NCBI GenBank assembly: GCA_016219285.1
Contig: JACRNJ010000032.1
Span: 21,721 to 85,720 of the forward strand
Direction: 5' to 3'
From: Deltaproteobacteria bacterium
GTDB lineage: Bacteria > Desulfobacterota > GWC2-55-46 > UBA9637
Length of the DNA: 64,000 nt
The notes under the pieces were generated by a model, which was not told the origin of the DNA, did not search any database, and worked only from the letters and a program-made list of their open reading frames with translations. Of this stretch, positions 2,629 through 61,952 are shown piece after piece (positions within the stretch are counted from its first letter, which is position 1; every line of letters starts with the position of its first letter). The translations under genes and the position numbers were made by a program.

Positions 2629-3387
2629 ATGCAAGATTCAAGATGCAAGATTCAAGTTTTACATCTTAAGTTTCTACTCGCAACTATTTTCTTACAACTT
2701 GCAACTTGCAACCTGCAACTGTCTTTTGCCCTTACGCCGCAGGAGGTACTTGAAAAGGTAGATAATATAAGGGCGCCTGACAGGACATTCATCTTTAACT
2801 TAAAGGTAACTGTTAAAAAAGGGGATGATGAAGATGTTTCAGAATTTTCTGTAAGGGTCAAAGATGCAAAGAAAAGCCTTGTTGTCTTTAAATCACCCCC
2901 ATCAAATAAAGGACGGGTATTGCTTATGGTAGAAGATAATATGTGGATATACATACCAGGGACAAGAAACCCCATAAGAATATCGCCCCAGCAGCAGATT
3001 ATGGGGAGGGTATCAAACGGAGATGTTGCAAGGGTTGTATATAATCTCGATTACAACGTTGAATCATTGGAAAATGAAGGGGAAATTATAAAGATGACCC
3101 TCGCTGCAAAGACAAAGGGCGCAGCATATAAAAGTATAAATCTGTGGATAGAAAAGGAGACCTTTAAACCTATCAAGGCAGAATTTTTTGCCCTGTCTGG
3201 TAAACTTTTAAAAACAGGATATTACAAAGGCTACAAAGAGATACTTGGCAAAGAGAGACCAACCATCATAGAGATACATGATGGGATAAAGGAACCAGAG
3301 ATATCCATTATGGAATATAGCAACATAAAACTTGAAGACACTCCCGATGCACACTTTCAGAAGACATTTATGGAAAGGGTGAAATAA
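2629..3387 (+). CDS. LolA-like outer-membrane lipoprotein-sorting / periplasmic carrier-like protein
   Basis: About 250 aa periplasmic protein with a signal peptide (LLATIFLQLATCNLQLSFA). The N-terminal region is encoded by the tandem repeat at 2618-2735. The start could be 2611 or 2629. The gene sits in an ABC/FtsX operon, as expected for a LolA_like family member. Confidence 0.55.
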   Translation: MQDSRCKIQVLHLKFLLATIFLQLATCNLQLSFALTPQEVLEKVDNIRAPDRTFIFNLKVTVKKGDDEDVSEFSVRVKDAKKSLVVFKSPPSNKGRVLLMVEDNMWIYIPGTRNPIRISPQQQIMGRVSNGDVARVVYNLDYNVESLENEGEIIKMTLAAKTKGAAYKSINLWIEKETFKPIKAEFFALSGKLLKTGYYKGYKEILGKERPTIIEIHDGIKEPEISIMEYSNIKLEDTPDAHFQKTFMERVK

Positions 3388-3395
3388 AATGTAAA

Positions 3396-4673
3396 ATGCA
3401 AAATGTAAAATGCAAAATTAAGGTAACTTTTTTTGTCTTTTTTATTTTTCTCTCTTGCCTATCCCATGCGCAGGAATTTACCTATGAATTCAGCGGCAAG
3501 ATTATTGAACAGCCCGCATATTATTTTTTAAAAGATGATTATCTCCTGAACCCCAACGGAGAGATACTGGATTTTTCTCTCTCAAAAAACAGGTTTTATG
3601 GCGATATAAATTTCAACCTTGATTACCAGAATTTTAAATTCATCTCAAAATTTAGACCAACAGTTTTATCGGATAAAAAGGATACAAATATAAAAACCAT
3701 TATTGATGACGGGTATCTGGACATTGGTTTTAAAGATAGGTTTTTCCTCTATCTTGGCAAAAGGAATATAAGGGATGGGGTTGGGCTCGGCTCAAATCCT
3801 ACAGATTTCTTAGGTGAAGGAAAAGAGGTTGATATGGCAAAGAGGGAGGAGGAGAGGCGGGTGGAGAGGGAGGGTAATTACCTGATCGGTATGGATACCT
3901 ATTTTAAAGATATTACATTAACTGCAATATTTGCCCCCCATATAAAGGAACTACAGGATGAAAAGGATAGGGTCATTTTAAAGGCAGGTTTTCTGATGGA
4001 GCCGCTCAATACAGACATCTCTTTTCACTATTTTAACAGCAGCATACCGGGGGCGGGCATTAACATATCCACCACCATTGGAGAGAGTCTTGTTCTGCAC
4101 ACAGAGTCAGCCCTTCGATGGGGAAGCGATAGAAAGATAGTCAGGCTCATCCAGGAGGGAAGCCCAAACCTATACGAAATATATCATCCCGATGACAATC
4201 AAACAATCTATCCACATATAGCAGCAGGAGGACATTATACATTTAAAGACGGAACGAATGTTATATTAGAATACCTATATAATGGCGATGGATACAATAG
4301 CGAAGAATGGAATACTCTCAAAGGATTTATAAAATACAGCTATGACGAATACAAAACCGGCTTTTTAAAAGAGCTTATGAAAGGGAACCTACTGCAGGCA
4401 AACGAGATAATGAGATTCAGGGAGTTGAGGAGAAACTATATCTTTGCAAGGATAAGCAACTCCGGCATCACAGAAAAGATAGACGGGGCATTGGTCTTCC
4501 TTTTAAATACAGATGATAAGAGCTTTCTCATTTATCCATCCGTGGATTATAAGATCAAGGGCAATACTACCGTAGGATTTTCTGCCATAATATTTGTCGG
4601 TGAAAATGACACGGAATTTGGTATGACCCACTGGGGGAGCGAAGTTAGTATGGTATATAGGTATTTCTTTTGA
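3396..4673 (+). CDS. putative outer membrane beta-barrel protein
   Basis: Signal peptide ending SHAQEF. The sequence alternates amphipathic beta-like segments rich in Y and G. The C-terminus RYFF ends in an aromatic residue, typical of OMP beta-barrels. It is the last gene of the exporter cluster. Confidence 0.45.
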   Translation: MQNVKCKIKVTFFVFFIFLSCLSHAQEFTYEFSGKIIEQPAYYFLKDDYLLNPNGEILDFSLSKNRFYGDINFNLDYQNFKFISKFRPTVLSDKKDTNIKTIIDDGYLDIGFKDRFFLYLGKRNIRDGVGLGSNPTDFLGEGKEVDMAKREEERRVEREGNYLIGMDTYFKDITLTAIFAPHIKELQDEKDRVILKAGFLMEPLNTDISFHYFNSSIPGAGINISTTIGESLVLHTESALRWGSDRKIVRLIQEGSPNLYEIYHPDDNQTIYPHIAAGGHYTFKDGTNVILEYLYNGDGYNSEEWNTLKGFIKYSYDEYKTGFLKELMKGNLLQANEIMRFRELRRNYIFARISNSGITEKIDGALVFLLNTDDKSFLIYPSVDYKIKGNTTVGFSAIIFVGENDTEFGMTHWGSEVSMVYRYFF

Positions 4674-7065: not shown

Positions 7066-7128
7066 GCAGGGTGGGCTGTGCCCACCGCAAACATTGTCCT
7101 TTGTAATGGTGGGCAAAGCCCACCCTGC
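7066..7128. repeat. REPIN-like palindromic doublet (gggtgggcNNtgcccacc x2, inverted), copy 1 of 3
   Basis: gcagggtgggctgtgcccaccgcaaacattgtcctttgtaatggtgggcaaagcccaccctgc. Each half is itself a palindrome. Near-identical copies lie at 23151-23212 and 49400-49463. Confidence 0.85.
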
Positions 7129-10820: not shown

Positions 10821-11882
10821 ATGTCATTCAAAGATATTTTAGGACATGATAGAGAAATAAGCATTTTGAAGAAAGCCATTTCAAATAATAGAGTTGCTCA
10901 TTCATTTTTATTTGCTGGGCATGAAGGGATAGGCAAACGGCTTGTTGCCATTTCCGTTGCAAAGGCGCTTAACTGCTCTGCTGCAAACAAGAGCCCCTCC
11001 TTATCGCCATTTAACAAAACAGGATGTGATGGAAGTAATAATGATTTTTGCGGGGTTTGTCAAAACTGCAAGGATATAGAGGCCTCTTCATACAGCGATG
11101 TCTTTCTGATTGAGCCGAGAGAGCCGGAATCCAAGGGCGGGAAAATAGACCATATAGCCGGCACAATAAAGATTGATGCTGTGAGAGATGTTCAGCAAAG
11201 GCTGTCTTACAGGGCAGCAAGAGGCGGCAAAAAGGTGTGTATAGTAGACTGCGCCGAGAAGATGAATAAAGAGGCTCAGAATGCATTCCTTAAAACACTT
11301 GAAGAGCCACCTTCTGATTCCATTATAATATTGGTTGTTAGCGATGGCGGAGCCATTTTGCCGACAATAACTTCTCGCTGCCAAAGGATCAATTTTACCC
11401 CGCTGCCGCAAAATGTTATGCTTGACATAGTCGGAGAACGATTGGGGGCAGCAAAAGAAACTGCTGTGCTGCTTGCTTGTTTGAGTGGAGGCAGCATAGG
11501 AAAGGCATTAAACTTGGATATGGATACCATGCTTGAACAAAGGAAAAAGATTGTTGAAGTATTATCACGGTTATCTTTGGATGATGCAGAAGGAATGTTC
11601 AAAGCAGCTGAAAAGATATCAAAAGGAGAGAGGCCTGTAGAGTCTCTGGAGTTTCTCAAAATATGGTATAGAGATATTGCGATATTAAAGGAAGGTGTGG
11701 AGGATATGGTTGTAAATTCAGACCTCCTGCCTGTTTTAAGACAGCATATGGAGCGCCAAACTTTTTCAAGGCTTATATCCGATTTTCAAATGGTGCTAAA
11801 TGCCCAATCTGATATTATGCCGCCAAGGTATGCAAATAAACAATTGACTATTGAAAATTTGCTTATGCAGCTTGCCACATAA
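10821..11882 (+). CDS. holB: DNA polymerase III subunit delta-prime
   Basis: AAA+ clamp-loader N-terminus (AHSFLFAGHEGIGKRLVA), a zinc-module-like CxxC...CxxC segment, and a SRC-like TSRCQ motif. Follows tmk. Confidence 0.8.
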   Translation: MSFKDILGHDREISILKKAISNNRVAHSFLFAGHEGIGKRLVAISVAKALNCSAANKSPSLSPFNKTGCDGSNNDFCGVCQNCKDIEASSYSDVFLIEPREPESKGGKIDHIAGTIKIDAVRDVQQRLSYRAARGGKKVCIVDCAEKMNKEAQNAFLKTLEEPPSDSIIILVVSDGGAILPTITSRCQRINFTPLPQNVMLDIVGERLGAAKETAVLLACLSGGSIGKALNLDMDTMLEQRKKIVEVLSRLSLDDAEGMFKAAEKISKGERPVESLEFLKIWYRDIAILKEGVEDMVVNSDLLPVLRQHMERQTFSRLISDFQMVLNAQSDIMPPRYANKQLTIENLLMQLAT

Positions 11883-12075
11883 TGATTTACGAATTACGAT
11901 TTACGAATTACGATTTTAAATACTTCACCTTACTTGCAAATCATAAATCTATACACAGCGACATAAATAGTTGCGCATACAGAGCGTCAGAACAAAGCAG
12001 ACCGAGGAGCAACACAGGTATGCGAAGTTATGACGCTCTGTATAAAATCGTAAATCATAATGGAGGATTGATATA

Positions 12076-12816
12076 ATGCCAAAGGTAGTAGGCGTAAGGT
12101 TTAAAAGGGCGTGCAAAATATATGATTTTGATGTCAATAATCTGGAGCTTAAAACTGGCGAACAGGTCGTTGTGGAGACACAAAAGGGGATGGGTCTGGG
12201 TTGGGTTGCGCGCAGCCCGCTTGACAAACCTGCCCCTGCAAGCAGTAAGCAGAGGGACGAGACAAACCTTGTTCAGCCGTTGAAAAAAGTAATAAGGAAG
12301 GCTACAGGTGGAGATAGGGAGCGGTTTGAATTCAACAAAGAGATGGAAGATGAAGCAGCTGCTGTATGCAGGAAAGAGATAGCCAAACACGGCCTTTCCA
12401 TGAAACTTGTAAATGTAGAATACCTTTTTGACTCAAGCAAGGTCATATTTTCATTTATTTCAGAAAACAGAGTTGATTTCAGGGATCTGGTCAAAGATAT
12501 GGCTAACGAGCTTCATACGAGAATAGAAATGCGTCAGATAGGGGTCAGGGATGAGGCTAAGATGTTAGGCGGTGTGGGCCCATGCGGAAGAATGCTCTGC
12601 TGTTCAACTCATCTTGTGGATTTTGAACCGGTAAGCGTTAAAATGGCAAAAGAGCAAAATATCTCTCTCAATCCTGCAAAGTTGTCAGGTGTTTGCGGCA
12701 GGCTTATGTGCTGTCTTTCGTATGAAGCATCGCAAGATGCCTGTGATTCAGGTTCAAATTGTTGCCATTCTCATAAGCCAGAACAAAGCCAACCATCCTC
12801 TTTACCAGGGGCATAA
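12076..12816 (+). CDS. PSP1 C-terminal domain protein (YaaT/RicT-like)
   Basis: Conserved PSP1 N-terminal region (VVGVRFKRACKIYDFD...) and a Cys-rich C-terminus (CGRMLCCSTH...CGRLMCCLSYE). Position after holB is as in Bacillus yaaT. Confidence 0.75.
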   Translation: MPKVVGVRFKRACKIYDFDVNNLELKTGEQVVVETQKGMGLGWVARSPLDKPAPASSKQRDETNLVQPLKKVIRKATGGDRERFEFNKEMEDEAAAVCRKEIAKHGLSMKLVNVEYLFDSSKVIFSFISENRVDFRDLVKDMANELHTRIEMRQIGVRDEAKMLGGVGPCGRMLCCSTHLVDFEPVSVKMAKEQNISLNPAKLSGVCGRLMCCLSYEASQDACDSGSNCCHSHKPEQSQPSSLPGA

Positions 12817-14367: not shown

Positions 14368-14383
14368 AGATTTCAAACCTATA

Positions 14384-14622
14384 GTCAGCGACATAAATTT
14401 GTAGTATGCCGATTTACCCCGTTAGAAGCTTTTCAATTGAAGATTTTGATGAAACTTTATTAACATTAACTCCCTTAAAATGAACTTCTAACGGGGTTTA
14501 TCGGCGATTTTAAACTTGTCCCCGCAGGCTTTAAGCTGGGATACGCCCATGGGGGCACCCAACAGAAAGTTGGGTCGGGCAAACTACATCTACATTATTT
14601 TTATCGTCAACTATAAAGCCTT
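14384..14622. mobile_element. composite/nested MITE-like element (family: gtagtNtgcc...caaactac) directly after the metG stop
   Basis: Shares both ends (agcgacataaatttgtagt...ggcacccaacagaaNgttgggtcgggcaaactac...atttttNtcgtc) with the 45190-45312 copy. It carries an extra internal inverted-repeat insert (ccccgttagaag...cttctaacgggg). Confidence 0.8.
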
Positions 14623-15174: not shown

Positions 15175-16599
15175 TTGTCAAACCAATATAAACTCATAGA
15201 CACCCATGCCCATCTTGACGACCCTAAATTTAAGAACGACCTGGATGACGTGATAAAAAGGGCAAAGGATGCAGGCGTTGGACATATAATCACTGTAGGC
15301 ACATGGCAAATTGAAAAAGGACTCAAGCATGTTGCAGAGCTTGCCGATGAATACGATTTTATCTATACTGCCCTTGGTGTTCATCCACATGATGCCAAAG
15401 ATGCAAATGATGACGCATTTAATGAAATCAAGGAACTGGCGCTCCATCCAAAGGTTATCGCCATTGGCGAAACAGGGCTTGATTATCATTACGAACACTC
15501 GCCGAGGGATGTTCAAAAAGCAGTATTTGCAAGGCAAATCCAAATAGCCCGTGAATTAAATCTGCCTCTTACCATTCACAGCAGGGAAGCACAGAACGAC
15601 ACTTTGGATATGCTTGCGCAGGAAGGTGTCAGAGACATCGGAGGTGTTTTGCATTGTTTTTCCGGCAGCTATGAAATGGCAAAGAAATGCCTTGATATGG
15701 GTCTCTATCTCTCCTTTACAGGTGTTGTCACATTTCCAAAGGCGGCAAATGTCCATGAGGTTGTAAAAAAGATTCCTATTGAAAGAATGCTCCTTGAAAC
15801 CGATTGCCCGTATCTGGCTCCTGAGCCGCACAGGGGCAAGAGGAATGAACCGGCATTTGTTGCAGAAACTGGAAAAAGGATTTCTGAGATAAAGGGATTA
15901 TCGTTTGACGATGTGGCAAGGATTACCACATTAAATGCAAAGGAACTATTCGGCATTGAGAAAGAAAATAAAGAAACCAGAATAGCGTATCCCATCAGGA
16001 ATTCACTTTACCTCAATATCACCAACCGATGCACCAACTACTGCACATTCTGCGCAAAGCATGCCCCCGCAGGCTTTAAGCGGGGGTCGAATGATTATAC
16101 TGTCAAGGGTCATTATTTGAGATTGAAGCAAGAGCCGGTCTTTCTTGATGTAATAATGGCTGTGGGCGACAGGCCTGCTGAAAAATATAACGAGATTGTA
16201 TTTTGCGGGTTTGGCGAGCCGCTTATAAGACTCGACCTTGTTAAAGAGGTTGGATTGTTTCTAAAAAAACAGGGTTGTAAGATACGGATAGATACAGACG
16301 GCCTTGCCAATCTTGTTCATGAAAGAAATATCCTGCCTGAACTTAAGTTTGTGGATACAATCTCCGTAAGTCTCAATGCCCCGGATTCAGCAACATATCA
16401 AAAACTCATCAAAACACCATTTGGCGACAAGGCATTTCCTGCCATAGTTTGGTTTTTGAAAGAGGCAAAAAAGCATATTTCAACGGTTGTTGCCACCGTA
16501 GTTGCTGTGCCAGAACTTGATATAGAGCCGTGCAGGAAATTGGCCGAAGATGAGCTCGGCGTTGGTTTCAGGGTGAGGGAGTATGATGAGGTGGGATAA
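15175..16599 (+). CDS. tatD: fusion protein: TatD-family metal-dependent hydrolase (N-terminal) plus TatD-associated radical SAM domain (C-terminal)
   Basis: TTG start. N-terminus DTHAHLDD ... GLDYHY ... ETDCPYL is a TatD fold. The C-terminal part of about 200 aa has CTNYCTFC (CxxxCxxC) and GFGEPL, a radical SAM core. It forms a single uninterrupted ORF of 474 aa downstream of metG, as Bacillus metS-yabD. Confidence 0.8.
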   Translation: MSNQYKLIDTHAHLDDPKFKNDLDDVIKRAKDAGVGHIITVGTWQIEKGLKHVAELADEYDFIYTALGVHPHDAKDANDDAFNEIKELALHPKVIAIGETGLDYHYEHSPRDVQKAVFARQIQIARELNLPLTIHSREAQNDTLDMLAQEGVRDIGGVLHCFSGSYEMAKKCLDMGLYLSFTGVVTFPKAANVHEVVKKIPIERMLLETDCPYLAPEPHRGKRNEPAFVAETGKRISEIKGLSFDDVARITTLNAKELFGIEKENKETRIAYPIRNSLYLNITNRCTNYCTFCAKHAPAGFKRGSNDYTVKGHYLRLKQEPVFLDVIMAVGDRPAEKYNEIVFCGFGEPLIRLDLVKEVGLFLKKQGCKIRIDTDGLANLVHERNILPELKFVDTISVSLNAPDSATYQKLIKTPFGDKAFPAIVWFLKEAKKHISTVVATVVAVPELDIEPCRKLAEDELGVGFRVREYDEVG

Positions 16600-16745
16600 A
16601 TACAAATTCCAAATTGCAAATCCCAAATAGCAAATAAATCTCAATCACCAATTCCCAATTTCCCAATCATATCCTTTGTTTGGCTATTGTAATTTGGTCA
16701 TTGGTTATTATTTGAATATTGATGCTTGCAATTTGGCGCTTATAT

Positions 16746-20218: not shown

Positions 20219-20320
20219 ATTCGTGCTAAGAGCATAGCACAAACTTTATGAATTGCAAGGAGGGGCATTCTTTTCTTGAACAATCCATAGAAATTGATAT
20301 TATGATTGAGATTTTAGAAT

Positions 20321-20373
20321 GTAGTTTGCCCATTTATGGGCGTCTTAAAAATCGCCGATAAATCGGCAACTAC
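20321..20373. mobile_element. MITE-like palindromic element, canonical 53 bp copy
   Basis: gtagtt-tgcccatttatgggcg-tcttaaaaat-cgccgataaatcggca-actac. It has terminal inverted repeats and two internal perfect palindromes. Confidence 0.85.
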
Positions 20374-20392
20374 AACTTGAGGTTATAGAACC

Positions 20393-22716: not shown

Positions 22717-22721
22717 AGAAT

Positions 22722-22790
22722 GTAGTGTGCCCATTTATGGGCGTATTTAAAAACGTAGATAAACCGATAAGCTGCAAATCATTGACTACA
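22722..22790. mobile_element. MITE-like element, degenerate copy
   Basis: gtagtgtgcccatttatgggcg...cgtagataaaccgataagc...gactacaatc. Confidence 0.6.
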
Positions 22791-22797
22791 ATCAAGA

Positions 22798-23763
22798 TTG
22801 CCGATGTTAAACAAACCAAAGAAAAATTCTAAAACGCCGATAAATCGGCAACTACAATCTTACGGTTTTTCTCCCTTAAAAAGATTCAGCCAAAACTTTC
22901 TCACCGATGAACGGATTGCCGGCAAGATTATTGATGCGTTTGAACTGAAAGAGGACGATACGGTAATAGAAATAGGCCCCGGTCTTGGCATGCTGACAGA
23001 GCGGCTGTTGGACACAGGGGCAAAGGTTCTGGCAATAGAGATAGATAAGGGTTTTGCAGATATTCTTGATAAAAGATTCGGCAGCAGGGATAATTTTGAA
23101 AAAATAATATGTCAAGATGCATTAAAAATTTCGTATAAAGAATTGTTTTGTAGGGTGGGCTGCGCCCACCAAAAACAGACGGATAAAAATGGCGGGCAAA
23201 GCCCGCCCTACAACGATAACAAGAAGCTTGCCCCTGCGGGCATAAAACAGTGGTTTAAGGTTATTTCCAATCTCCCTTACAACATCTCAACACCCATTAT
23301 TTTTAAACTTCTTGAGGAGCGCGAGATATTTTCAATGTTCCTGCTTATGCTGCAAAAAGAGGTGGCCGAACGGATTGTATCGCAGCCTGACACAAAAGAG
23401 TACGGTGTTTTGTCTATATTTGTTCAACTGTTTGCAGATGTAAATATAGAGTTTGATGTGCCGCCATCTTCATTTTATCCAAAACCAAATGTCTATTCTT
23501 CTGTTGTTAGGTTCACTATATTGCAGAAACCGAGAGTTGAAATATATGACATCAGCTTTTTTAAAAGAGTTGTTAAGGCGTCTTTTGGGCAGAGGAGGAA
23601 AACCCTGCTAAATGCCTTAAAGGTTTTAAAACTGACAACCCAGGAGATTAGAAATGCCTTAGAGCAATCTGGTATAGAGCCGCAGGCAAGGGGGGAGACC
23701 CTTAGCCTTAAAGAATTTGGAATATTAAGCAATAACTTGAAGAAAATAGCAGAACATATTTAA
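22798..23763 (+). CDS. rsmA: 16S rRNA (adenine1518/1519-N6)-dimethyltransferase KsgA/RsmA with in-frame REPIN-derived insert
   Basis: Conserved motifs FSQNFL, IEIGPGLGMLT and NLPYNIST are present. A half-MITE (22832-22860) encodes part of the N-terminus. The full REPIN-like doublet at 23151-23212 is translated in frame as CRVGCAHQKQTDKNGGQSPPYN. Confidence 0.85.
   Translation: MPMLNKPKKNSKTPINRQLQSYGFSPLKRFSQNFLTDERIAGKIIDAFELKEDDTVIEIGPGLGMLTERLLDTGAKVLAIEIDKGFADILDKRFGSRDNFEKIICQDALKISYKELFCRVGCAHQKQTDKNGGQSPPYNDNKKLAPAGIKQWFKVISNLPYNISTPIIFKLLEEREIFSMFLLMLQKEVAERIVSQPDTKEYGVLSIFVQLFADVNIEFDVPPSSFYPKPNVYSSVVRFTILQKPRVEIYDISFFKRVVKASFGQRRKTLLNALKVLKLTTQEIRNALEQSGIEPQARGETLSLKEFGILSNNLKKIAEHI
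23151..23212. repeat. REPIN-like palindromic doublet, copy 2 of 3, located inside the rsmA coding sequence
   Basis: tagggtgggctgcgcccaccaaaaacagacggataaaaatggcgggcaaagcccgccctaca. Confidence 0.85.
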
Positions 23764-24233: not shown

Positions 24234-24899
24234 ATGTCCATTTCCGTCATAATTCCAACCTTGAATGAAGAAGATAATCTTGAACATACCTTGAAATCAG
24301 TTGGCCAAGATGCGGAGATTATTATTGCAGACGCCGGAAGCAGTGATTCCACAATCAAAATAGCCAATGGGTTCACAGACAAGATTATCATGTCGGAAAA
24401 AGGAAGAGGCGCTCAGATGGATAACGGGGCAAGAATGGCGACAGGCGATATATTCCTTTTCCTACATGCAGACACAAGGCTTCCTGATGGCTGGATGGAA
24501 AAAGTTGCAGAAGCGCTAAAAGATGCTAAAGTTGTTGGAGGGGGGTTCAGGTTAAAAATAAACTCAGGAAAATTCTCTTTTAGTATTATAGAGGCAATAG
24601 TTAATCTTCGGTCAAGACGCCTTGGCTTTATCTACGGGGACCAGGCTATATTTGTCAGAAGGGATGTCTTTTTATCGGTTGGAGGTTTTATGGGGCTTCC
24701 ACTGATGGAGGATGTGGACTTAATGAGAAGGCTCAAGAAGGTTGGCAAGGTTATTTTAGTGGATGCGCAGGCCTCTACATCTCCGAGGCGCTGGGAGAAG
24801 AGAGGTGTTTTGAGGACAACTTTAAGAAACTGGATGTTTTTGAGCCTTTATTATCTTGGTGTTTCTCCGCAAAAATTATATAAATGTTATTATCAGTAG
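24234..24899 (+). CDS. family 2 glycosyltransferase
   Basis: N-terminal pattern SVIIPTLNEE...IIADAGSSD...GRGAQMDNG...GDIFLFLHADT is a GT-A fold with a DxD region. The ATG at 24234 is preferred over the ORF-track start at 24177, which lies in the hairpin. Confidence 0.7.
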   Translation: MSISVIIPTLNEEDNLEHTLKSVGQDAEIIIADAGSSDSTIKIANGFTDKIIMSEKGRGAQMDNGARMATGDIFLFLHADTRLPDGWMEKVAEALKDAKVVGGGFRLKINSGKFSFSIIEAIVNLRSRRLGFIYGDQAIFVRRDVFLSVGGFMGLPLMEDVDLMRRLKKVGKVILVDAQASTSPRRWEKRGVLRTTLRNWMFLSLYYLGVSPQKLYKCYYQ

Positions 24900-25014
24900 T
24901 CTGCCGATTTATCGGCGATTGTAACTCAAACCTTCAGATTTGAGTTTTTCAAGGCTAAAGCCTTGAGTTACAAAATGCGCCCATAAATGGGCAGGCTGCA
25001 AAAATATTAACTAC
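24896..25014. mobile_element. MITE-like element, inverted orientation with nested internal hairpin insert
   Basis: gtagtctgccgatttatcggcg...(gtaactcaaa...ttgagttac insert)...cgcccataaatgggcag...aactac. Confidence 0.8.
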
Positions 25015-28142: not shown

Positions 28143-29489
28143 TTATTTGGCGCTGACCGGTATTGTAAACCTAAAAGTGGTTCCTTTGTCCAGTTCACTT
28201 TCTATTGAAATAGTGCCGCCGTGCCTCTCAATTATATGCCTTGTCATGGCAAGGCCAAGACCTGTGCCTTTTGTTGTTTTTATAACATTACCAGCCCTGA
28301 AGAATTCTTCAAAGATGTGCGGCATGTCATTTGACGGTATGCCAATCCCTGTATCTTTTATCTCCGCAATAATGTAGCCATTTTTTCGTGAAACCTTTAT
28401 CCAGACATTTCCTCCATGTTGAGTATATTTGAACGCATTGGCAATGAGGTTTAGGAAGGCATAGGTTATTAATTCCCTGTCAGCCTTTATATCTGGCAAC
28501 TGCGCATCAATTTCTATGTTTAACTGTATATCCTTTTCTCCCATCTTCGACGATGCAATCTCCACAGCGGTATCTATAGCCTCTTTTATATTAAATATCT
28601 TCAGATTAAGATTTTTCTCCGCCCTTATTCTGGAGAGATCAAGAAGGTCTTTTGCATAATGATGGAGAAATTCTGTTTTTTTCTGAATTCTCTGCAAAAC
28701 CTCTTTTACCTTTTCATCAAGGGTACCGGCAAACCCGCCTATCACTACCTCCAAAAGGCTCTGAATGGAGGCAAGGGGAGACTTTAAATCATGGCTGACC
28801 ATCTTTACATATTCATCTTTAAGTCTATCCTTTTCCAATAATTTCAGGTGAGCCTCCTCTAACTCTTTTTCCCTGTTTTTAAGCTTTTCTGCCAGGGATG
28901 CAGTGAAAAAGGTGGCGATGAAAATGGTGGATGTCAATACGAATGATATAGCTGCCGTATATATCTTATTTTTGTAAAGGTCTATGCCCAAAAATCCATT
29001 TACAGAGTGGTGAGGTAGAGTGTTTAGATATTCAAGCGTAAAGAGGCCGACTGTCAGAATAGAAATAATGCATGCCTGGATATAGGCCTCTTTTTTTGAG
29101 AGGAGCATGCTCGTAAGTATAGTATGGAAGATGAAATAAAATATAAATGGGTTTTCAGCGCCGCCTGTAAAGTGTATGAGAACAGTCAGGCTCAAAATGT
29201 CCAGCATACTCTGAAGAATCGCAAATCTCCGTATGGTCTTATGCAGATTGCCGGCAGATCTCTTGTTTATATAAAACTTAAAAATGGCATTATAAAGAGC
29301 TATGAATATGGCGATGAGATATACAGGAAGGTCAGGAAAGGAGACATTGAATAGATAGATAGACGTAAACGTTGCGGCAATAATAAATATCACAGCAGCC
29401 CAGCGTATATTTATGAGCCACTTTAGTCTTTCTACGAGTTCTTCTTGCCACAGATCTGTCTTATGCACATTTGTTTGCAGTTGCCGCAT
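28143..29489 (-). CDS. membrane sensor histidine kinase
   Basis: N-terminal 5-6 transmembrane segments, HisKA H-box MVSHDLKSPL, and an HATPase (DTGIGIP...GTGLGLAM). Confidence 0.85.
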   Translation of the reverse strand: MRQLQTNVHKTDLWQEELVERLKWLINIRWAAVIFIIAATFTSIYLFNVSFPDLPVYLIAIFIALYNAIFKFYINKRSAGNLHKTIRRFAILQSMLDILSLTVLIHFTGGAENPFIFYFIFHTILTSMLLSKKEAYIQACIISILTVGLFTLEYLNTLPHHSVNGFLGIDLYKNKIYTAAISFVLTSTIFIATFFTASLAEKLKNREKELEEAHLKLLEKDRLKDEYVKMVSHDLKSPLASIQSLLEVVIGGFAGTLDEKVKEVLQRIQKKTEFLHHYAKDLLDLSRIRAEKNLNLKIFNIKEAIDTAVEIASSKMGEKDIQLNIEIDAQLPDIKADRELITYAFLNLIANAFKYTQHGGNVWIKVSRKNGYIIAEIKDTGIGIPSNDMPHIFEEFFRAGNVIKTTKGTGLGLAMTRHIIERHGGTISIESELDKGTTFRFTIPVSAK

Positions 29490-29530
29490 TTATTGGGCTT
29501 ATTAAAGGCGCCGATAAATCGGCACACTAC
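29476..29530. mobile_element. MITE-like element, degenerate copy
   Basis: gcagttgccgcatttattgggc...ggcgccgataaatcggcacactac. Confidence 0.55.
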
Positions 29531-32101: not shown

Positions 32102-32723
32102 GTAGGTTGGGTTGAGCAAAGCGAAACCCAACAATTCATTCATACCCTACATCCTCATCAAATTGAATCTCACAACCTGCCCCCCAATCGCTCTTGTAAA
32201 TGCCCTGTTTAACATAACGATGAAAACTTGAATATGCCCAGTCGCGTGGCAATGTTACCAGACTATGTTTAACAGGATTGTAATGGATGTAATTACAATG
32301 CGCCTCAAAATCTTTCTCGTCTCTAATCTGATGCTCCCAAAACCGCCTCTGCCAAACCGCTTGTTCTCCCTTACTTAATTTTGAGGCAGATCTAAAGCCT
32401 TTATATCCATCCTGACATTGTCTGCTAAAATAGCTTTTTATAAGCCCCCATCGCAGAGAAAAATCATTATCGTTGTGCGGCAATGTCCAGATACAGTGAA
32501 TATGATCGGGCAGCAAAACAAATGCGTCAATCCGAAAGGTGTGTCTGTTGATAACATACTGAAACGCTTCTTTTATCAACCGTATGTTTGCTTCATGGCA
32601 TAAAATCCTTTTCCTCCCGTGCGTTACCACCGTAAAGAAAAATGCCGCCCCTTTTGCCTTTGACCTGCGATAACGCATTGCTTTTTATGATTATGTTGGG
32701 TTTCGTTCCTCAACCCAACCTAC
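32102..32723. mobile_element. RAYT (REP-associated tyrosine transposase) unit bounded by hairpin inverted repeats
   Basis: Left end is gtaggttgggttgagcaaagcgaaacccaaca. Right end is tgttgggtttcgttcctcaacccaacctac, its inverse, and each end is an 8-bp-stem hairpin. The unit encloses one transposase gene. Confidence 0.8.
32136..32678 (-). CDS. REP-associated tyrosine transposase (IS200/IS605 TnpA-like, Y1 HUH family)
   Basis: HuH motif LPDHIHCIW and catalytic Tyr region NYIHYNPVKH. Length 180 aa, which is longer than IS200 TnpA and typical of RAYTs. Confidence 0.8.
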   Translation of the reverse strand: MRYRRSKAKGAAFFFTVVTHGRKRILCHEANIRLIKEAFQYVINRHTFRIDAFVLLPDHIHCIWTLPHNDNDFSLRWGLIKSYFSRQCQDGYKGFRSASKLSKGEQAVWQRRFWEHQIRDEKDFEAHCNYIHYNPVKHSLVTLPRDWAYSSFHRYVKQGIYKSDWGAGCEIQFDEDVGYE

Positions 32724-37341: not shown

Positions 37342-37428
37342 CGGCTTTGTAAAAAGTCCATCTGTGGAGCCTGTTCCGAGCAAAGTGAGAAATCTTGGTC
37401 TTCGCTGCGGCTTCTGCGTTCAACACCT

Positions 37429-37483
37429 GTAGTTTGCCCATTTATGGGCGTTTTTTAAAAGCGCCGATAAATCGGCAGACTAC
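37429..37483. mobile_element. MITE-like element, canonical copy
   Basis: gtagtttgcccatttatgggcgttttttaaaagcgccgataaatcggcagactac. Confidence 0.85.
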
Positions 37484-37530
37484 ACCCATATTCTATAGAT
37501 ACAGAAGAAAGAAAAACCATTTTATTATTC

Positions 37531-40164: not shown

Positions 40165-41376
40165 TTGAAGAGAATATACCTTGATAACAATGCAACAACA
40201 CCAATCCACCCTGAGGTTTTTGATGCGATGCTTCCATATCTGAAACATGAATTTGGAAATCCATCCAGCATCCATTGGGCAGGGAGGAATCCCAGAAGGG
40301 TTGTTGATGATGCGAGAGAGAAAGTGACGAAGCTTCTCAATTGTGATGCAAATGAAATCATTTTCACAAGCTGCGGGTCAGAAAGTAACAATCTTGCTAT
40401 AAAGGGAGTTGCCGAATCAAAAAAAGATAAAGGCAACCATATTATTACTACTAAAGTGGAGCATCCAGCCGTTTTGAGTACTTGCAAATACCTTGCAAAA
40501 AACGGTTTTGATGTAACCTTTCTTGATGTTGATAATCATGGCATGCTGGATTTAGACCAGCTTAAAAAGGCAATAACTCCAAAGACAATACTTATTACGA
40601 TAATGTTTTCAAATAATGAGACGGGAGTGATATTTCCCATAGAGGAGATAGGCAAGATTGCAAAAGAGCATAATATTCCTTTCCATACCGATGCTGTTCA
40701 GGGTGTGGGAAAGGTTCCTATAGATGTAAAGAAAATGAATGTAGACCTGTTGACGCTTTCAGGCCATAAGCTCTATGCGCCAAAGGGGATTGGCGCACTC
40801 TATGTCAAAAGAGGTGTAAGGTTGGTGCCATTAATTCATGGCGGTCATCAGGAGCGGAACAGAAGGGGCGGCACAGAAAATGTCGCCGGTATTGTTGCAC
40901 TTGGAAAGGCGTGCGAGATTGCCGCCAGAGACATGGAGCAAGAGATAAAACATATTACAGCTTTAAGAGACAGACTTGAAAAAGGACTGATGCAAAGGGT
41001 AACGCATGTGCGGCTTAATGGCCATCCAATAGAGAGGATTCCTAACACGGTAAACCTAAGTTTTGAATTTGCAGAGGGAGAGTCGCTGCTTTTAAACCTT
41101 GATATGAAGGGGATAGCTGCATCGTCTGGTTCGGCATGCACATCCGGAACATTGGAGCCGTCCCATGTGCTTGTGGCTATGGGTGTTCCGATGGAGGCAT
41201 CTCACAGTTCTGTGCGATTTAGCCTTGGGCGTGGGAATACGATAGAGGATATTGACTATGTTATAGATGTCTTGCCGGCAATGGTGGAAAGGATGAGGAG
41301 CATGTCGCCGCTTTATTCTACGATTACCGGAAAAGGTGAGAATATAACGTTCAGTGAAAGCAATTGCAGCCATTAA
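40165..41376 (+). CDS. iscS: cysteine desulfurase IscS/NifS
   Basis: PLP Lys motif SGHKLYAPKGIGALYV and active-site Cys loop SSGSACTSG. Length 403 aa. Confidence 0.9.
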   Translation: MKRIYLDNNATTPIHPEVFDAMLPYLKHEFGNPSSIHWAGRNPRRVVDDAREKVTKLLNCDANEIIFTSCGSESNNLAIKGVAESKKDKGNHIITTKVEHPAVLSTCKYLAKNGFDVTFLDVDNHGMLDLDQLKKAITPKTILITIMFSNNETGVIFPIEEIGKIAKEHNIPFHTDAVQGVGKVPIDVKKMNVDLLTLSGHKLYAPKGIGALYVKRGVRLVPLIHGGHQERNRRGGTENVAGIVALGKACEIAARDMEQEIKHITALRDRLEKGLMQRVTHVRLNGHPIERIPNTVNLSFEFAEGESLLLNLDMKGIAASSGSACTSGTLEPSHVLVAMGVPMEASHSSVRFSLGRGNTIEDIDYVIDVLPAMVERMRSMSPLYSTITGKGENITFSESNCSH

Positions 41377-41509
41377 GAAAGATTCAAGATTTAAGATACA
41401 AGATTTAAGATACAAGATGCAATATGCAAGATTCAATATTTATAATTATTTTTGGCTGCAATCTGAAACTTGTAACTTGCAACCATATTCATTGAAAGGA
41501 GATTGAGAT
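41377..41509. repeat. intergenic tandem simple repeat (aagatttaagatacaagat units) plus tgcaa-type tail
   Basis: gattcaagatttaagatacaagatttaagatacaagatgcaatatgcaagattcaa...ctgcaatctgaaacttgtaacttgcaacc. Confidence 0.8.
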
Positions 41510-45183: not shown

Positions 45184-45189
45184 ATTATA

Positions 45190-45312
45190 GGCAGCGACAT
45201 AAATTTGTAGTCTGCCGATTTATCGGCGGTTTTAAAATACGCCCATGGGGCACCCAACAGAAGGTTGGGTCGGGCAAACTACAGCTACTTATTTTTGTCG
45301 TCCACTATAGAA
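45190..45312. mobile_element. MITE-like element (long form) directly after the rnc stop
   Basis: agcgacataaatttgtagtctgccgatttatcggcgg...cgcccatggggcacccaacagaaggttgggtcgggcaaactacagctac...atttttgtcgtc. It is the un-nested counterpart of 14384-14622. Confidence 0.8.
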
Positions 45313-49399: not shown

Positions 49400-49463
49400 G
49401 TAGGGTGGGCTATGCCCACCTTTTTGATTGTGCCGCAATTTTGGTGGGCATAGCCCACCCTAC
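49400..49463. repeat. REPIN-like palindromic doublet, copy 3 of 3, interrupting a small ORF
   Basis: gtagggtgggctatgcccacctttttgattgtgccgcaattttggtgggcatagcccaccctac. The minus-strand ORF 49375-49566 reads through it and is then frameshifted. Confidence 0.85.
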
Positions 49464-53397: not shown

Positions 53398-54513
53398 TCA
53401 GCCTTTCGCCTGCCTTTCAGGTATTATCCAGATACTCTCTTTTTTCAAAGATACTGTTATGGTTTTGCCTTTGCTGAGTTTAAGCTTTCTATATGCGAAG
53501 TTTGGGATTTCTATCTTAATGGTTGCGTCTCTGTCTCTTACCTTAAAATAAATGGTATGGCTCGCCCCTTTACCAAGGGTTGTCAATACCTCGCCTTCCA
53601 ACAGATTATCCTGCACCTTTTTGTCTATCGGCTTGTCGGGTCTTATAATCATAATCTCTTCAGGCCTTATTCCAAATGTCACCTTTTCTCCAACAGTCAT
53701 GCGCTGCTCTTCATGGTGGAGCAATGCCTTAATCTCTCCAATATCGGGGTTTTCTATTGCCACTGCTTTTTCATACAGAGAAACAATTATGCCGCTAAAG
53801 ATATTCCTTGCCCCCAAAAACCTTGCGACATTTTTAGTCTTTGGCTTATAAAATACATCTTCCCTTGCGCCGAACTGTTCAAGCCTGCCGTTGTTTATTA
53901 TGGCTATATTTTCCCCCATAACAAATGACTCCTCAAGGTCGTGGGTAACAAAGAGTGTTGTTATCGGGTATTTCTGATGTATGAGCAACAGGTCTGCCCT
54001 GAGCTTTTCCCTGACCTGATAGTCAAGGGCTGAAAACGGTTCATCCAGAAGCAGTATACTTGGTTCTGCTGCAAGCGTTCTTGCAAGGGCTGCCCTCTGT
54101 TTTTGCCCGCCCGACAGCTCCTTTGGAAATCTGTGTTCAAGCCCGCCAAGCCGCATGAGGTCAAGAAGTTCTTCTACTTTTGTCTTGCTCTTATTTTTAG
54201 GTTCATGGCTTATGCCGTAAGCTATATTCTCAAAAACAGTCATGTGCGGGAAAAGGGCATAATCCTGAAAAAGATAGCCTATCTTTCTCTCTCTTATGGG
54301 AATATTTATTCCGGTTGCAGAATTAAAAATTTCCCTGCCTTCAATTCTCACAAAACCTTCATCAGGTTTTATAATGCCAGAGATTAAATTTAACAAGAGG
54401 CTCTTGCCGGCGCCTGATGGGCCAAACACAACAGCCATGTTTTCCTCAATGGAAAACGCTATATCAATTGAAAAGTCGCGGAAATGCTTTTTGAGATGAA
54501 AGGAAAGAGACAT
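53398..54513 (-). CDS. modC: molybdate/tungstate ABC transporter ATP-binding protein with C-terminal TOBE/Mop domain
   Basis: Walker A GPSGAGKS and signature LSGGQKQRAALAR, with a TOBE-like C-terminal domain of about 130 aa. Operon with modB and modA. Confidence 0.85.
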   Translation of the reverse strand: MSLSFHLKKHFRDFSIDIAFSIEENMAVVFGPSGAGKSLLLNLISGIIKPDEGFVRIEGREIFNSATGINIPIRERKIGYLFQDYALFPHMTVFENIAYGISHEPKNKSKTKVEELLDLMRLGGLEHRFPKELSGGQKQRAALARTLAAEPSILLLDEPFSALDYQVREKLRADLLLIHQKYPITTLFVTHDLEESFVMGENIAIINNGRLEQFGAREDVFYKPKTKNVARFLGARNIFSGIIVSLYEKAVAIENPDIGEIKALLHHEEQRMTVGEKVTFGIRPEEIMIIRPDKPIDKKVQDNLLEGEVLTTLGKGASHTIYFKVRDRDATIKIEIPNFAYRKLKLSKGKTITVSLKKESIWIIPERQAKG

Positions 54514-54586
54514 AAAAAAATTGTAGATTTACGAATTACGAATTACGATTTAAAATCTAAAATCATAAATCTAAAATAGTAAATCC
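54514..54586. repeat. intergenic tandem simple repeat (attacga / aaatcta units)
   Basis: gtagatttacgaattacgaattacgatttaaaatctaaaatcataaatctaaaatagtaaatc. Confidence 0.8.
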
Positions 54587-55246: not shown

Positions 55247-56067
55247 TAAAATTCTCCCGGCAGAAGAAAACCGTATTTTTTCATGATTGGCCTGCCTATA
55301 GGGCTGGTTACATAGTGTATAAATTCCCTTGCCTCTTTTTCAGCCTTTGTCTTTTTTATCACAGCCGCCGCCTGATTGATAGGGTTATGAAGGATATTAT
55401 CAATAGGTGTATAGGTTATTTCAGGCACATTGGCAACCGATAATGCAATAATGCCAACAGGCACATCTCCTGTCTGGAGATACTGCAATGCCTGTCTTAT
55501 AATTTCGCCATAAACAAGTTTGGGTTTAAGTTTATCCCATAATTCAAGTTTTAGCAGTGCCTCTTTTGCGGCAATGCCATAAGGCGCATGGTCTGGATTG
55601 GCAATAGAAATCTTTTTAATAGACGGGTCAAGGAGGTCTTCAAGTTTTTTTGCGTTTATCCCATATGTTTTATTCGCAGCCAGAACGATCCTGCCCTGGG
55701 CATACAGTTTTTGTGTATCTGGAATAATGAGCCCGCCGTTTTTTAATTCATCAATATATTTTTCGTTGGCAGCAAAAAAAATATCAAATGGGGCGCCGTT
55801 TTCTATTTGCCTGGCAAGCATGCCTGTGGAACCGAATGACAGTACAACCCTCGTGCCGGTATTTATCTCAAATTGTTTGGCTATTTCCTTTAATGCAAAA
55901 GAAAGGTCGCTGGCGGCGGCAATAGTGAGAGATTTTTGTTCCGCAAAAATAGCAGCAGGCAGTAGGCAGTAGGCAGTAAGCAGTAACAGGATTTTAGATT
56001 TTAGATTTACGATTTTAGATTTATGATTTTTTAATTCGTAATTCGTAATTCGTAATTCGTAAATCAT
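55246..56067 (-). CDS. modA: molybdate-binding periplasmic protein ModA; N-terminus and start codon encoded by an intergenic-type tandem repeat
   Basis: Mature part LTIAAASDLSFALKEIAKQFE...GTRVVLSFGSTGMLARQIENGAPFDIFFAA is the ModA fold. The only in-frame canonical start is the ATG at 56067, inside the repeat atgatttacgaattacgaattacg. Confidence 0.8.
   Translation of the reverse strand: MIYELRITNYELKNHKSKIVNLKSKILLLLTAYCLLPAAIFAEQKSLTIAAASDLSFALKEIAKQFEINTGTRVVLSFGSTGMLARQIENGAPFDIFFAANEKYIDELKNGGLIIPDTQKLYAQGRIVLAANKTYGINAKKLEDLLDPSIKKISIANPDHAPYGIAAKEALLKLELWDKLKPKLVYGEIIRQALQYLQTGDVPVGIIALSVANVPEITYTPIDNILHNPINQAAAVIKKTKAEKEAREFIHYVTSPIGRPIMKKYGFLLPGEF
55985..56066. repeat. tandem simple repeat (gattttagat and aattcgt units) spanning the gpsA-modA junction
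   Basis: gattttagattttagatttacgattttagatttatgattttttaattcgtaattcgtaattcgtaattcgtaaatcat. Confidence 0.85.
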
Positions 56068-60644: not shown

Positions 60645-61952
60645 TTGAAAGCTATTATGGAACTTTTTGAAAAAAAGATTAAGAGGGAAGAAAGCAAAAC
60701 AAGCCCTCTGGCAGACAGAATGAGGCCAAGGAATAGAGAAGAGGTTGTTGGCCAGAGGCATTTGCTGGGAGCAGGAAGGTTTATAACAAGGCTTATAGAT
60801 AAAAAGGGACTCATATCTTTAATCCTCTGGGGGCCTCCGGGTACCGGCAAGACAACCCTCGCCAATATTATTGCTGAGGCATCGGGCGTAAATTTTGTAT
60901 CTTTTTCGGCAGTGCTTTCAGGGGTAAAGGATATAAGGGCGGTAATAGATGAGGCAAAGGGTGAGTTAAGGCTCCGCAACCGCAGGACAATCCTTTTTGT
61001 AGATGAGATACATAGGTTTAACAAGGCACAGCAGGATGCATTTCTCCATTATGTGGAGGATGGCACCATAACCTTAATCGGCGCTACAACAGAAAACCCT
61101 TCCTTCGAGGTTAATGCCCCGCTTTTGTCCAGATGCAAGGTTCTGGTCCTTGAACAGCTTGTGTCCGAGGATCTAAAAATTATCATCAAAAGGGCCATTG
61201 AGGATAAGGAAAGGGGCATGGGAAATCTCAATGTCTCGTTTGGTGAAGACGCCCTTGATTTTCTGGCCGATTATTCCCAGGGTGATGCAAGGGCTGCGCT
61301 CAATGGATTGGAGGCCTCTGTTATGATAACCCCCGATAGAGGCATTCGGGGGCAGGCTCAGCCGGATAAGGATAACAGCCGCAGGATTACCCTGGAGATA
61401 ATGCAGGAAGCTGTTCAGAAGATGGCCATTTTGTATGATAAAGGCGGCGAGGATCACTACAATATAATATCTGCATTTATAAAATCCATGAGGGGAAGCG
61501 ACCCTGATGCAGCCCTTTACTGGCTTGCAAGGATGTTAGAGGCAGGTGAAGCTCCTTTGTTTATTGTCAGAAGAATGGTTATATTTGCCTCAGAGGATAT
61601 TGGCAATGCAGACCCCAATGCCATATCTGTTGCCGTTGCTGTAAAAGATGCAGTGGATTTTGTGGGTATGCCTGAGGCATGGATTCCCCTTGCCCAGGGC
61701 GTTACCTATCTTGCAACAGCGCCCAAGAGCAATGCTTCATATCTGGCATATCTTGAAGCCTTGGAGGATGTGAAGAAAAAAGGCGCTTTGCCGGTTCCCC
61801 ATCATATAAGAAATGCGCCCACAGGGCTTATGAAAGAACTTGGATATGGAAAAGGCTATAAGTATCCCCATAATTATGAAGGCGCAAAGATAGAGCAGGA
61901 GTATCTGCCGGAGGCCTTGAAAGGAAGGAAATATTATAAAAAGAAAGGATAA
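60645..61952 (+). CDS. rarA: replication-associated recombination protein A (AAA+ ATPase)
   Basis: Walker A GPPGTGKTT, Walker B/sensor VDEIHRFNKAQQDAFL, and a MgsA C-terminal domain. Length 435 aa. Confidence 0.9.
   Translation: MKAIMELFEKKIKREESKTSPLADRMRPRNREEVVGQRHLLGAGRFITRLIDKKGLISLILWGPPGTGKTTLANIIAEASGVNFVSFSAVLSGVKDIRAVIDEAKGELRLRNRRTILFVDEIHRFNKAQQDAFLHYVEDGTITLIGATTENPSFEVNAPLLSRCKVLVLEQLVSEDLKIIIKRAIEDKERGMGNLNVSFGEDALDFLADYSQGDARAALNGLEASVMITPDRGIRGQAQPDKDNSRRITLEIMQEAVQKMAILYDKGGEDHYNIISAFIKSMRGSDPDAALYWLARMLEAGEAPLFIVRRMVIFASEDIGNADPNAISVAVAVKDAVDFVGMPEAWIPLAQGVTYLATAPKSNASYLAYLEALEDVKKKGALPVPHHIRNAPTGLMKELGYGKGYKYPHNYEGAKIEQEYLPEALKGRKYYKKKG

Follow-up and report, generated by a model that had tools for sequence, protein, structure and literature searches.

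A TatD–radical SAM fusion gene that probably carries, in frame, a 27-nt copy of a small dispersed hairpin repeat

We analysed a stretch of 64,000 nucleotides from a Deltaproteobacteria bacterium assembly (hereafter the window, numbered from its first letter), focusing on an open reading frame (ORF) that unites a TatD hydrolase with a radical S-adenosylmethionine (SAM) domain. We consider it about 80% probable that this gene is an ordinary TatD–radical SAM fusion which carries one 27-nt copy of a small dispersed hairpin unit resembling the repetitive extragenic palindromic (REP) elements. Feature coordinates are collected in Table 1.

The fused gene and its insert

We observed that the window gene has 27 extra bases, CATGCCCCCGCAGGCTTTAAGCGGGGG (16060-16086), lying two residues after the third cluster cysteine of the radical SAM domain. 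Beyond this cysteine most orthologues read FCAK-FKS-YTVKGH, whereas the window protein reads FCAK-HAPAGFKRG-SND-YTVKGH. The initial annotation had proposed a repeat-derived segment beside the Fe-S loop, and this was borne out by the nine residues HAPAGFKRG. The SND that comes after them substitutes for the FKS of other orthologues, and its membership in the repeat is not demonstrable.

The extra bases form a hairpin, cccccgcaggctttaagcgggggt, with a perfect 7-bp stem and a 9-nt loop. It is real, as had been claimed, but it lies at 16064-16087 and not at 16065-16088. Folded as DNA it gave -9 kcal/mol (z = -3.0), and only one of 200 shuffles folded as well. The 17-mer CCCCGCAGGCTTTAAGC (16065-16081) was likewise found to recur exactly in a repeat upstream, although at 14520-14536 instead of 14521-14537. 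With up to three mismatches allowed, the 17-mer had three matches in the window against 0.12 expected, and none of 100 shuffles reached three. The likeness between the genic and the intergenic copy extends to 29 nt at 86% identity. The genic copy was also the top nhmmer match to the unit profile.

Comparison of filled and empty sites defined the insert precisely. The empty sites read GCA AAA^TTC AAG TCG (locus L004) and GCT AAA^TTT AAA TCA (L130), and the filled site reads GCA AAG^CATGYCCCCGCAGGCTTTAAGCGGGGR^TTY AAA TCN, with a gain of exactly 27 nt and no target-site duplication. Some alleles encode 18 extra residues, and in these a second 27-nt hairpin is nested in the loop of the first unit, between GGC and TTT. 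In L006 the inner hairpin is the same element inverted, placed after an AAAG offered by the other strand of the loop, while L001 and L005 have a sister type there, whose stem is CCTCGA/TCGGGG. L005 (two units, 54 nt) and the empty L130 share 94.6% identity across 1398 nt, with a clean 54-nt indel as their main difference. Separately, around 1638-1650 of L130, the TatD parts of the two differ by an in-frame indel of 12 nt (TCCGCCTCAGGC). We considered whether the 18-residue form was the original and the 27-nt form its deletion product, and rejected this, as the inner 27 nt are a complete unit, in one case inverted. An assembly artefact was also rejected, since the insert recurs in independent ENA, NCBI, Logan and JGI assemblies.

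Filled alleles numbered nine, all within one 23-leaf clade of a 119-protein tree, where they were mixed with 14 empty ones. For seven of the nine, the nearest relative outside the insert was an empty allele. The initial annotation had raised the possibility that the 17-mer is conserved in orthologous genes; we found it patchy and confined to this clade, and not conserved family-wide. Between the window and L003 the insert had no differences in 27 positions, while 102 of 252 flanking positions and 54 of 84 third codon positions differed. The copy in L008 has 6 of its 27 positions changed and has lost the hairpin; it encodes YAPAGFKGK, and the ORF is still open. We read identical inserts in diverged genes as a sign of recency (by repeated insertion, short-patch recombination or both) and not of selection on the hairpin. 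Insertion and recombination could not be separated as the source of the patchiness among the radical SAM orthologues.

The SND codons (TCK AAT GAT, 16087-16095 in the window) were seen only beside filled alleles. When metagenomes were scanned, the SND-type filled allele, which served as positive control, had three matches and the SND-type empty allele had none. This pattern speaks for some transfer of a patch, although counts as small as these do not settle whether SND belongs to the inserted patch. The string GCGGGG-(A/G)TCTAATGA also follows the hairpin in two Omnitrophota copies, and the inserted patch may at times exceed 27 nt. Besides the window, the loci concerned in these observations are L003, L001, L127-L129, L011 and L076.

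The gene itself is a single frame of 474 codons with neither stop nor frameshift, as the initial annotation had it, and both of its domain models were matched in hidden Markov model searches. Its product is identical to the NCBI protein P0001 from a metagenome-assembled genome (MAG; 'Deltaproteobacteria bacterium', 96.8-kb contig). Pfam TatD_DNase (PF01026) covers aa 8-260 with profile positions 1-253 of 253 (E 2.5e-93, 312.6 bits, cutoff 27), and NCBIfam TIGR00010 scored 307.5 bits against a cutoff of 206. The model TIGR04038, 'TatD family nuclease-associated radical SAM protein', covers aa 270-471 with profile positions 2-192 of 192 (236.6 bits, cutoff 129.7), and Pfam Radical_SAM (PF04055) covers aa 280-458 with 53 bits. 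The domain spans 202 residues for 191 TIGR04038 profile positions, an excess consistent with the 9-aa insert. Among 119 orthologues, the TatD metal ligands (H11, H13, E99, H135, D210), the cluster cysteines (C286, C290, C293) and G345, G347, E348 and L350 of the GFGEPL motif were invariant. By models and motifs, the protein is therefore assigned to the TatD hydrolases, to TIGR04038 and to the radical SAM superfamily.

The AlphaFold (AF2) model has a predicted local distance difference test score (pLDDT) of 86 overall and about 96 in the TatD domain. Foldseek matched it to TatD of S. aureus (2gzx; template modelling score 0.97, root mean square deviation 1.2 A, 48% identity) and to E. coli YcfH (1yix, 41% identity). 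For the radical SAM domain, a sequence search of the PDB returned only a chance match (E 0.096) and no solved relative. Syntenic loci have the order tmk-holB-(DUF488)-PSP1-metG-x-tatD/rSAM, where rSAM denotes the radical SAM part. We take the order tmk-holB-PSP1-metG-tatD to be the one in which the housekeeping paralogue of TatD is found (E. coli tmk-holB-ycfH; Bacillus metS-yabD).

The fusion had been offered as Rosetta-stone evidence that the two domains act together. It is genuine, but it is not new. All 120 of the nearest database proteins were fused and collinear, with about 465 aa and 61-100% identity (Thermodesulfobacteriota and 'Deltaproteobacteria' MAGs). A search with the radical SAM domain alone against 1.84 billion cluster representatives gave 1194 relatives. 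Both split and fused forms exist in the family: the best 150 of these relatives, which are representatives at 50% identity, comprised 80 fused, 51 stand-alone (270 aa or less) and 19 partial proteins. The name of TIGR04038 already refers to the TatD link, and the model is typed 'subfamily_domain'. The TatD–radical SAM fusion is thus ordinary, widespread and already catalogued. Joint action of the two domains on nucleic acid is putative, and it is a reasonable inference that is already implicit in the family name. Our literature search found no mention of TIGR04038, and for TatD/radical SAM fusions only generic annotation papers.

Copies elsewhere in the window and in other genomes

We scanned the window for the architecture of the unit (C-N-T-G-Y, a 6-bp G+C stem, a 9-nt loop and the closing stem with at most one mismatch; the full layout ends with R). 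This returned four units against 0.13 expected, and three of the four lie in frame in conserved genes. The in-frame copies in the PSP1 and RarA genes, like the gene for a REP-associated tyrosine transposase (RAYT), had been overlooked earlier. In PSP1 the nine extra residues (LEK^...^D) were missing in four of four syntenic orthologues, and the site reads GAAAAG^27 nt^GAT. In RarA the 9-aa insert was unique among 98 orthologues, one of which is 89% identical. It falls within AAA_assoc_2, which spans 90 residues for 80 profile positions, and its junction on the minus strand is CTGAG^27 nt^GTTAT. The fourth unit is a 26-nt insertion in a REP doublet when compared with the paralogous repeat at 45186-45296, with the junction TTTTAAA^...^ATACGCCC (ATACG side); the same site is also filled in L004. 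The junction in the radical SAM gene is GCAAAR^27 nt^TTYAAR. In all four of these independent filled-versus-empty comparisons, target-site duplication was absent and AAA, AAG or GAG preceded the unit. Read directly from the sequence, four of its six frames are open; because of this, and because its length is a multiple of three, the host protein is left intact.

The upstream repeat had been described as a nested MITE (miniature inverted-repeat transposable element), a term by which we understand a body of 70-300 bp between terminal inverted repeats, together with a target-site duplication. It is better described as a GTAG-type REP doublet with two nested insertions, one of which is a 26-27 nt copy of the unit. 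The unit is not a MITE either, being a single hairpin of 27 nt with neither terminal inverted repeats around a body nor a target-site duplication at its four junctions. The other insertion in the doublet is an 84-nt element (14408-14505) in one REP loop, with 21-nt inverted ends GCCGATTTACCCCGTTAGAAG (14408-14428) and CTTCTAACGGGGTTTATCGGC (14485-14505), and the paralogue at 45186-45296 lacks it.

When 185,579 species genomes were scanned for exact matches to the pattern of the unit's 21-nt core, at least 118 stretches were found, where about 4 are expected by chance (an arithmetic estimate that assumes uniform base composition). The MAG labels among the matches listed were Omnitrophota, Thermodesulfobacteriota, Nitrospirota, Methylomirabilis, Planctomycetes, Gamma- and Betaproteobacteria, Ignavibacteriae, Calditrichaceae and Nitrospinota, and several genomes had multiple copies. 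The core was also present, in a CGTC-tagged form, in two Alteromonas isolates, A. alba 190 and A. lipolytica JW12 (L069 7849-7869 and L082 728-748). As in the window, some copies elsewhere are in frame. The Pfam-confirmed domains or proteins that host them comprise T9SS sorting domains of two Ignavibacteriae, RibD_C, HATPase_c, a MethyltransfD12 DNA methylase, two AddA/UvrD-type helicases and BamB. Rfam at gathering thresholds had no match anywhere in the window, and a literature search with the literal GCGGGAATGAC returned only unrelated topics.

The flanks were analysed for 125 core copies, taken from the window and the fetched loci. In 54 of them the core was led by GTCAT, preceded in 49 by T or C (a TGTC or CGTC tag) and followed in 52 by ATC, which makes an AT-started 8-bp stem; 23 had the full ATCCA tail. 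The 27-nt class led by CNTGY comprised 60 copies, and in 44 of these, counting copies related by descent, the preceding bases were AAAG (19), GAAG (15), AGAG (6) or TAAG (4). Units of this class were often nested in dRS3-like hairpin loops, as in GTCATTCCCGC-GAAG^unit^GCGGGAATCCA.

Several other repeats were noted in the window. GTAG and palindrome repeats with GTAGTNTGCCSATTTATSGGCG lie at 14380-14601, 45186-45296, 20316-20375, 22717-22857, 24896-24924, 29472-29521 and 37424-37484. They are partly inverted doublets, similar to the REP doublets termed REPINs, and their loops hold short hairpins such as ACCCAAC-AGAAA-GTTGGGT. Intergenic tandem arrays with a 7-nt period (AAGATKC, TTACGAW, CAAATNC and others) occupy 2616-2675, 3383-3428, 11862-11935, 16600-16670, 41362-41456, 54511-54570, 55982-56027 and 57833-57931. 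Hairpin units in L022, L034 and L045 are bordered by similar arrays of GTCAnnn heptamers, and the array in L034 appears to be translated within RibD. A further palindromic family, (A/G)GGGTGGGC-NNNN-GCCCACC, occurs as pairs about 40 nt apart at 7068-7126, 23152-23209 and 49401-49461.

Table 1. Coordinates in the window of the fused gene, the hairpin units and associated features
Feature	Position	Strand	Basis
ORF of 474 aa, TatD hydrolase and TatD-associated radical SAM domain	15175..16599	+	open; collinear fusions in homologues
TatD (YcfH/YabD-type) metal-dependent hydrolase domain, aa 8-260	15196..15954	+	PF01026, TIGR00010
Radical SAM domain, family TIGR04038, aa 270-471	15982..16587	+	236.6 bits, cutoff 129.7
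CxxxCxxC cluster motif CTNYCTFC (C286, C290, C293)	16030..16053	+	orthologue alignment
GFGEPL SAM-binding-type motif (G345-L350)	16207..16224	+	read from sequence
27-nt hairpin unit CATGC-CCCCGC-AGGCTTTAA-GCGGGG-G, in frame, peptide HAPAGFKRG; 7-bp stem arms 16064-16070 and 16080-16086	16060..16086	+	absent from L004 and L130 (empty sites); nhmmer; architecture scan
Unit CCTGC-CCCTGC-AAGCAGTAA-GCAGAG-G in PSP1 gene (12076-12816), peptide PAPASSKQR, imperfect stem	12229..12255	+	nhmmer E 2.7e-4; architecture scan
Intergenic unit CTTGT-CCCCGC-AGGCTTTAA-GCTGGG nested in REP doublet	14515..14540	+	nhmmer E 2.3e-8; paralogue comparison
Unit CCTGC-CCCCGA-ATGCCTCTA-TCGGGG-G (sister stem type) in RarA/MgsA gene (60645-61952), peptide PDRGIRGQA	61330..61356	-	architecture scan, sequence
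GTAG-type REP doublet (REPIN-like), host of intergenic unit and 84-nt nested element	14380..14601	+	aligned with 45186-45296
RAYT gene	32136..32678	-	NF047646 193 bits, cutoff 80; PF01797

Spread of the unit and its meaning for the protein

The junctions have a consistent behaviour: precise gain or loss of 27 nt, a purine-rich 5' site, a preference for hairpin loops, and self-nesting. The unit might move as a single-stranded DNA hairpin by means of a trans-acting enzyme of the HUH/Y1 type (RAYT or IS200-like) or another hairpin-specific enzyme, a mechanism to which we give less than even odds. It would join on the 3' side of an A/G-A-A/G site rich in purines, in many cases within another hairpin's loop; joining would leave the target unduplicated, and precise loss could follow. 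The patchy distribution among orthologues would then reflect such events together with short-patch homologous recombination between alleles. Only tentatively do we go on to suggest that the 27-nt unit is a currently active, single-hairpin mobile element that crosses phyla, is mobilised in trans, enters single-stranded or hairpin-loop DNA 3' of A/G-A-A/G with no duplication, and excises precisely. To our knowledge, few mobile DNA units as small as this would then have been described.

Within the window, the RAYT is the sole candidate for a transposase acting on single-stranded DNA; it was located by tblastn with the RAYT of L003. It was rejected as a demonstrated mobiliser of the unit, since on both sides it is flanked by REPs of another type, the GTAG-tagged GTAGGTTGGGTT...AACCCAACCTAC hairpins in a 'REPtron' layout, and not by the CCCCGC hairpin. 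The RAYT gene of L003, a related MAG (527-1051; Y1_Tnp, E 1e-5), has GTAG REPs in frame inside it, and the same REPs flank it.

Several points weigh against the reading of the insert as one copy of a dispersed, REP-like unit. The unit has neither the GTAG nor the CGTC tag, and its copies in PSP1 and in the intergenic doublet did not outperform shuffled sequences in folding. The unit has no linked transposase, the window RAYT being bordered by the GTAG-type REP, and within 1.5 kb of the copies in 118 loci no gene family recurred beyond common families. No recurrent neighbour was seen, and so no transposase encoded in cis emerged. The breadth across phyla comes mostly from MAG bins, where mis-binning is possible, and the tetranucleotides upstream of the unit were counted over copies that include relatives by descent. 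Furthermore, the double-nested allele is common to lineages that are only about 80% identical, the confinement of the SND codons to filled alleles (3 vs 0) hints at patch transfer, and the patchiness and the identical inserts could both stem from a single old insertion that was recombined, and not from repeated transposition.

These last points lead to the alternative that survives best: one ancestral insertion in the radical SAM gene, shuffled since by short-patch homologous recombination (gene conversion) with occasional deletion, the unit itself being an immobile fossil. We regard this as possible, though on balance doubtful. The filled radical SAM alleles all agree in exact site and orientation, as one insertion would predict, and the insert and its neighbouring codons are near-identical between the window and L003. 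The double-nested allele and the SND codons point the same way. A fossil, however, leaves unexplained the lineage-specific copies in PSP1 and RarA, which are missing in orthologues up to 89% identical, and also the copy in the REP doublet, the nesting in either orientation and the presence of at least 118 copies in other DNA. It would also be expected to decay, as the L008 copy did.

The hairpin could instead act as a nucleic acid, by folding in the mRNA so as to pause translation or stabilise the message, or by binding a protein. In its favour are the perfect stem, the stronger conservation of the DNA relative to its flanks, and the proposal that REPs serve as RNA or gyrase sites (PMC3733652). 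We consider such a role improbable, because close relatives manage without the hairpin, the copies in L008, in PSP1 and in intergenic DNA no longer pair well, the window has no Rfam match, and the locations in other genes show no common logic.

Still less probable, in our view, is an adaptive extension of the cluster-binding region (for reductant docking or substrate access, for example) maintained by selection on the protein. The position two residues after the third cysteine would suit it, and lineages that are 65-100% identical keep filled alleles with an intact ORF. Most orthologues, very close ones included, nevertheless lack the insert, and the same DNA unit occurs in unrelated genes and in intergenic DNA. 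Versions of 9 and 18 residues coexist, and the L008 copy has decayed. Structure prediction of the cluster loop, which the initial annotation had suggested as a check, had low confidence both with the insert (residues 284-315) and without it (P0012, residues 291-305). Other members of the radical SAM family independently have long loops here. The insert is most economically read as a tolerated surface loop, and nothing in the data suggests that it benefits the enzyme.

Finally, an origin in place by template switching or slippage at a quasi-palindrome, independent of any repeat family, can be set aside as highly improbable: template switching can generate hairpins de novo (PMC10710096), and the target holds a small palindrome (TGCGCA), but the empty site offers no template, and the idea is already contradicted by the recurrence of the same 21-27 nt at unrelated window loci and in at least 118 stretches elsewhere.

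For the enzyme, little changes, since the fusion was known and the insert seems to be a tolerated passenger. The loop directly after the radical SAM cysteine motif accepts 9 or even 18 residues, which is useful for modelling and engineering the family. For annotation, short in-frame repeats inflate the apparent protein diversity of MAGs and can be mistaken for lineage-specific functional loops. For mobile DNA, the locus provides filled and empty sites that compare cleanly, nesting in both orientations and three in-frame insertions within 64 kb. Its junctions, with no duplication, insertion after AAR or GAG and a preference for hairpin loops, make a concrete and testable model of how REP-like hairpins spread, a matter of interest chiefly for the CGTC class, for which no transposase is known (PMC3733652). 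If the unit is indeed active, it would be a 'live' example of how untagged or CGTC-type REPs disseminate and enter genes in frame. As the core is present in cultured Alteromonas, mobility tests are feasible.

Comparison with known systems

With TIGR04038 and the YcfH/YabD-type TatD proteins, the window protein shares full-length matches to both models, the conserved ligands and cysteines, and the tmk-holB-PSP1-metG setting. The architecture is identical, and the sole difference here is the nine extra residues following CxxxCxxC.

The GTAG REPs and REPINs resemble the unit in being hairpin repeats, and GTAG REPs with a RAYT gene are also present in this window. The unit differs in that it lacks GTAG, does not flank the RAYT and occurs as a singlet. 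Movement of REPs and REPINs in trans by a Y1 transposase has been proposed (Bertels and Rainey 2011, PMC3116915), as has mobilisation of REPs by RAYTs (Nunvar 2010, as cited in PMC3116915). REPINs are doublets, REP singlets were judged to be immobile remnants, and repeats inserted in repeats were described (PMC3116915).

The 'peel and paste' movement of IS200/IS605 elements, with hairpin recognition, no duplication, insertion 3' of a short site and precise loss, would be compatible by analogy with the junctions seen here. These elements have two ends around a transposase gene, whereas the window unit is a single hairpin with no associated transposase gene. Small dispersed repeats of 21-27 nt, which form hairpins, nest in one another and occupy intergenic DNA as well as conserved genes, were reportedly described in heterocystous cyanobacteria by Elhai et al. 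in 2008. They are alike in size, hairpin and nesting, a likeness by description only, and differ in phylum.

The CGTC-tagged REPs form a superfamily that includes Neisseria dRS3 and Rickettsia RPE-4 and RPE-6; they occur across several phyla with no transposase dedicated to them, and some copies lie in genes, notably of repair and replication (PMC3733652). They are defined by an unpaired CGTC, TGTC or CCTC tag at one end, an AT-started stem of 8-9 bp, a loop of 4-5 nt and a 3-nt tail near CCA (PMC3733652). The likeness to the unit lies in the small G+C hairpins, the spread over phyla, the absence of a dedicated transposase and the occasional in-frame position in genes. The GTCAT-led copies of the core fit the definition except for their 9-nt loop. 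The window unit, on the other hand, has no CGTC or TGTC tag (its leaders are CATGC, CTTGT and CCTGC), no AT stem start and no CCA tail, and its C/G stem is 6-7 bp with a 9-nt loop, as against 8-9 bp with 4-5 nt. Di Nocera et al. (2013) considered that the formation of new CGTC repeats may have ceased (PMC3733652), whereas the filled and empty sites described here argue for recent movement.

With the Rickettsia palindromic elements (RPEs) and other intragenic REPs, the unit shares in-frame palindromes that leave genes intact, several genes per genome, and peptides in loops or linkers (PMC3733652). The same behaviour, a dispersed palindrome in frame in conserved open genes, was seen here in three window genes and in several domains elsewhere. 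The window unit differs in its 27-nt length, where RPE-1 is roughly 100-150 bp, in its occurrence in free-living bacteria assigned to many phyla, and in its self-nesting. Because it lacks every defining feature of the CGTC and GTAG REPs, we file it as a related variant, one with unusually clear signs of recent gain or loss, and not as a member. Our verdict is that the unit is an RPE-like intragenic relative of the REPs, untagged by either GTAG or CGTC.

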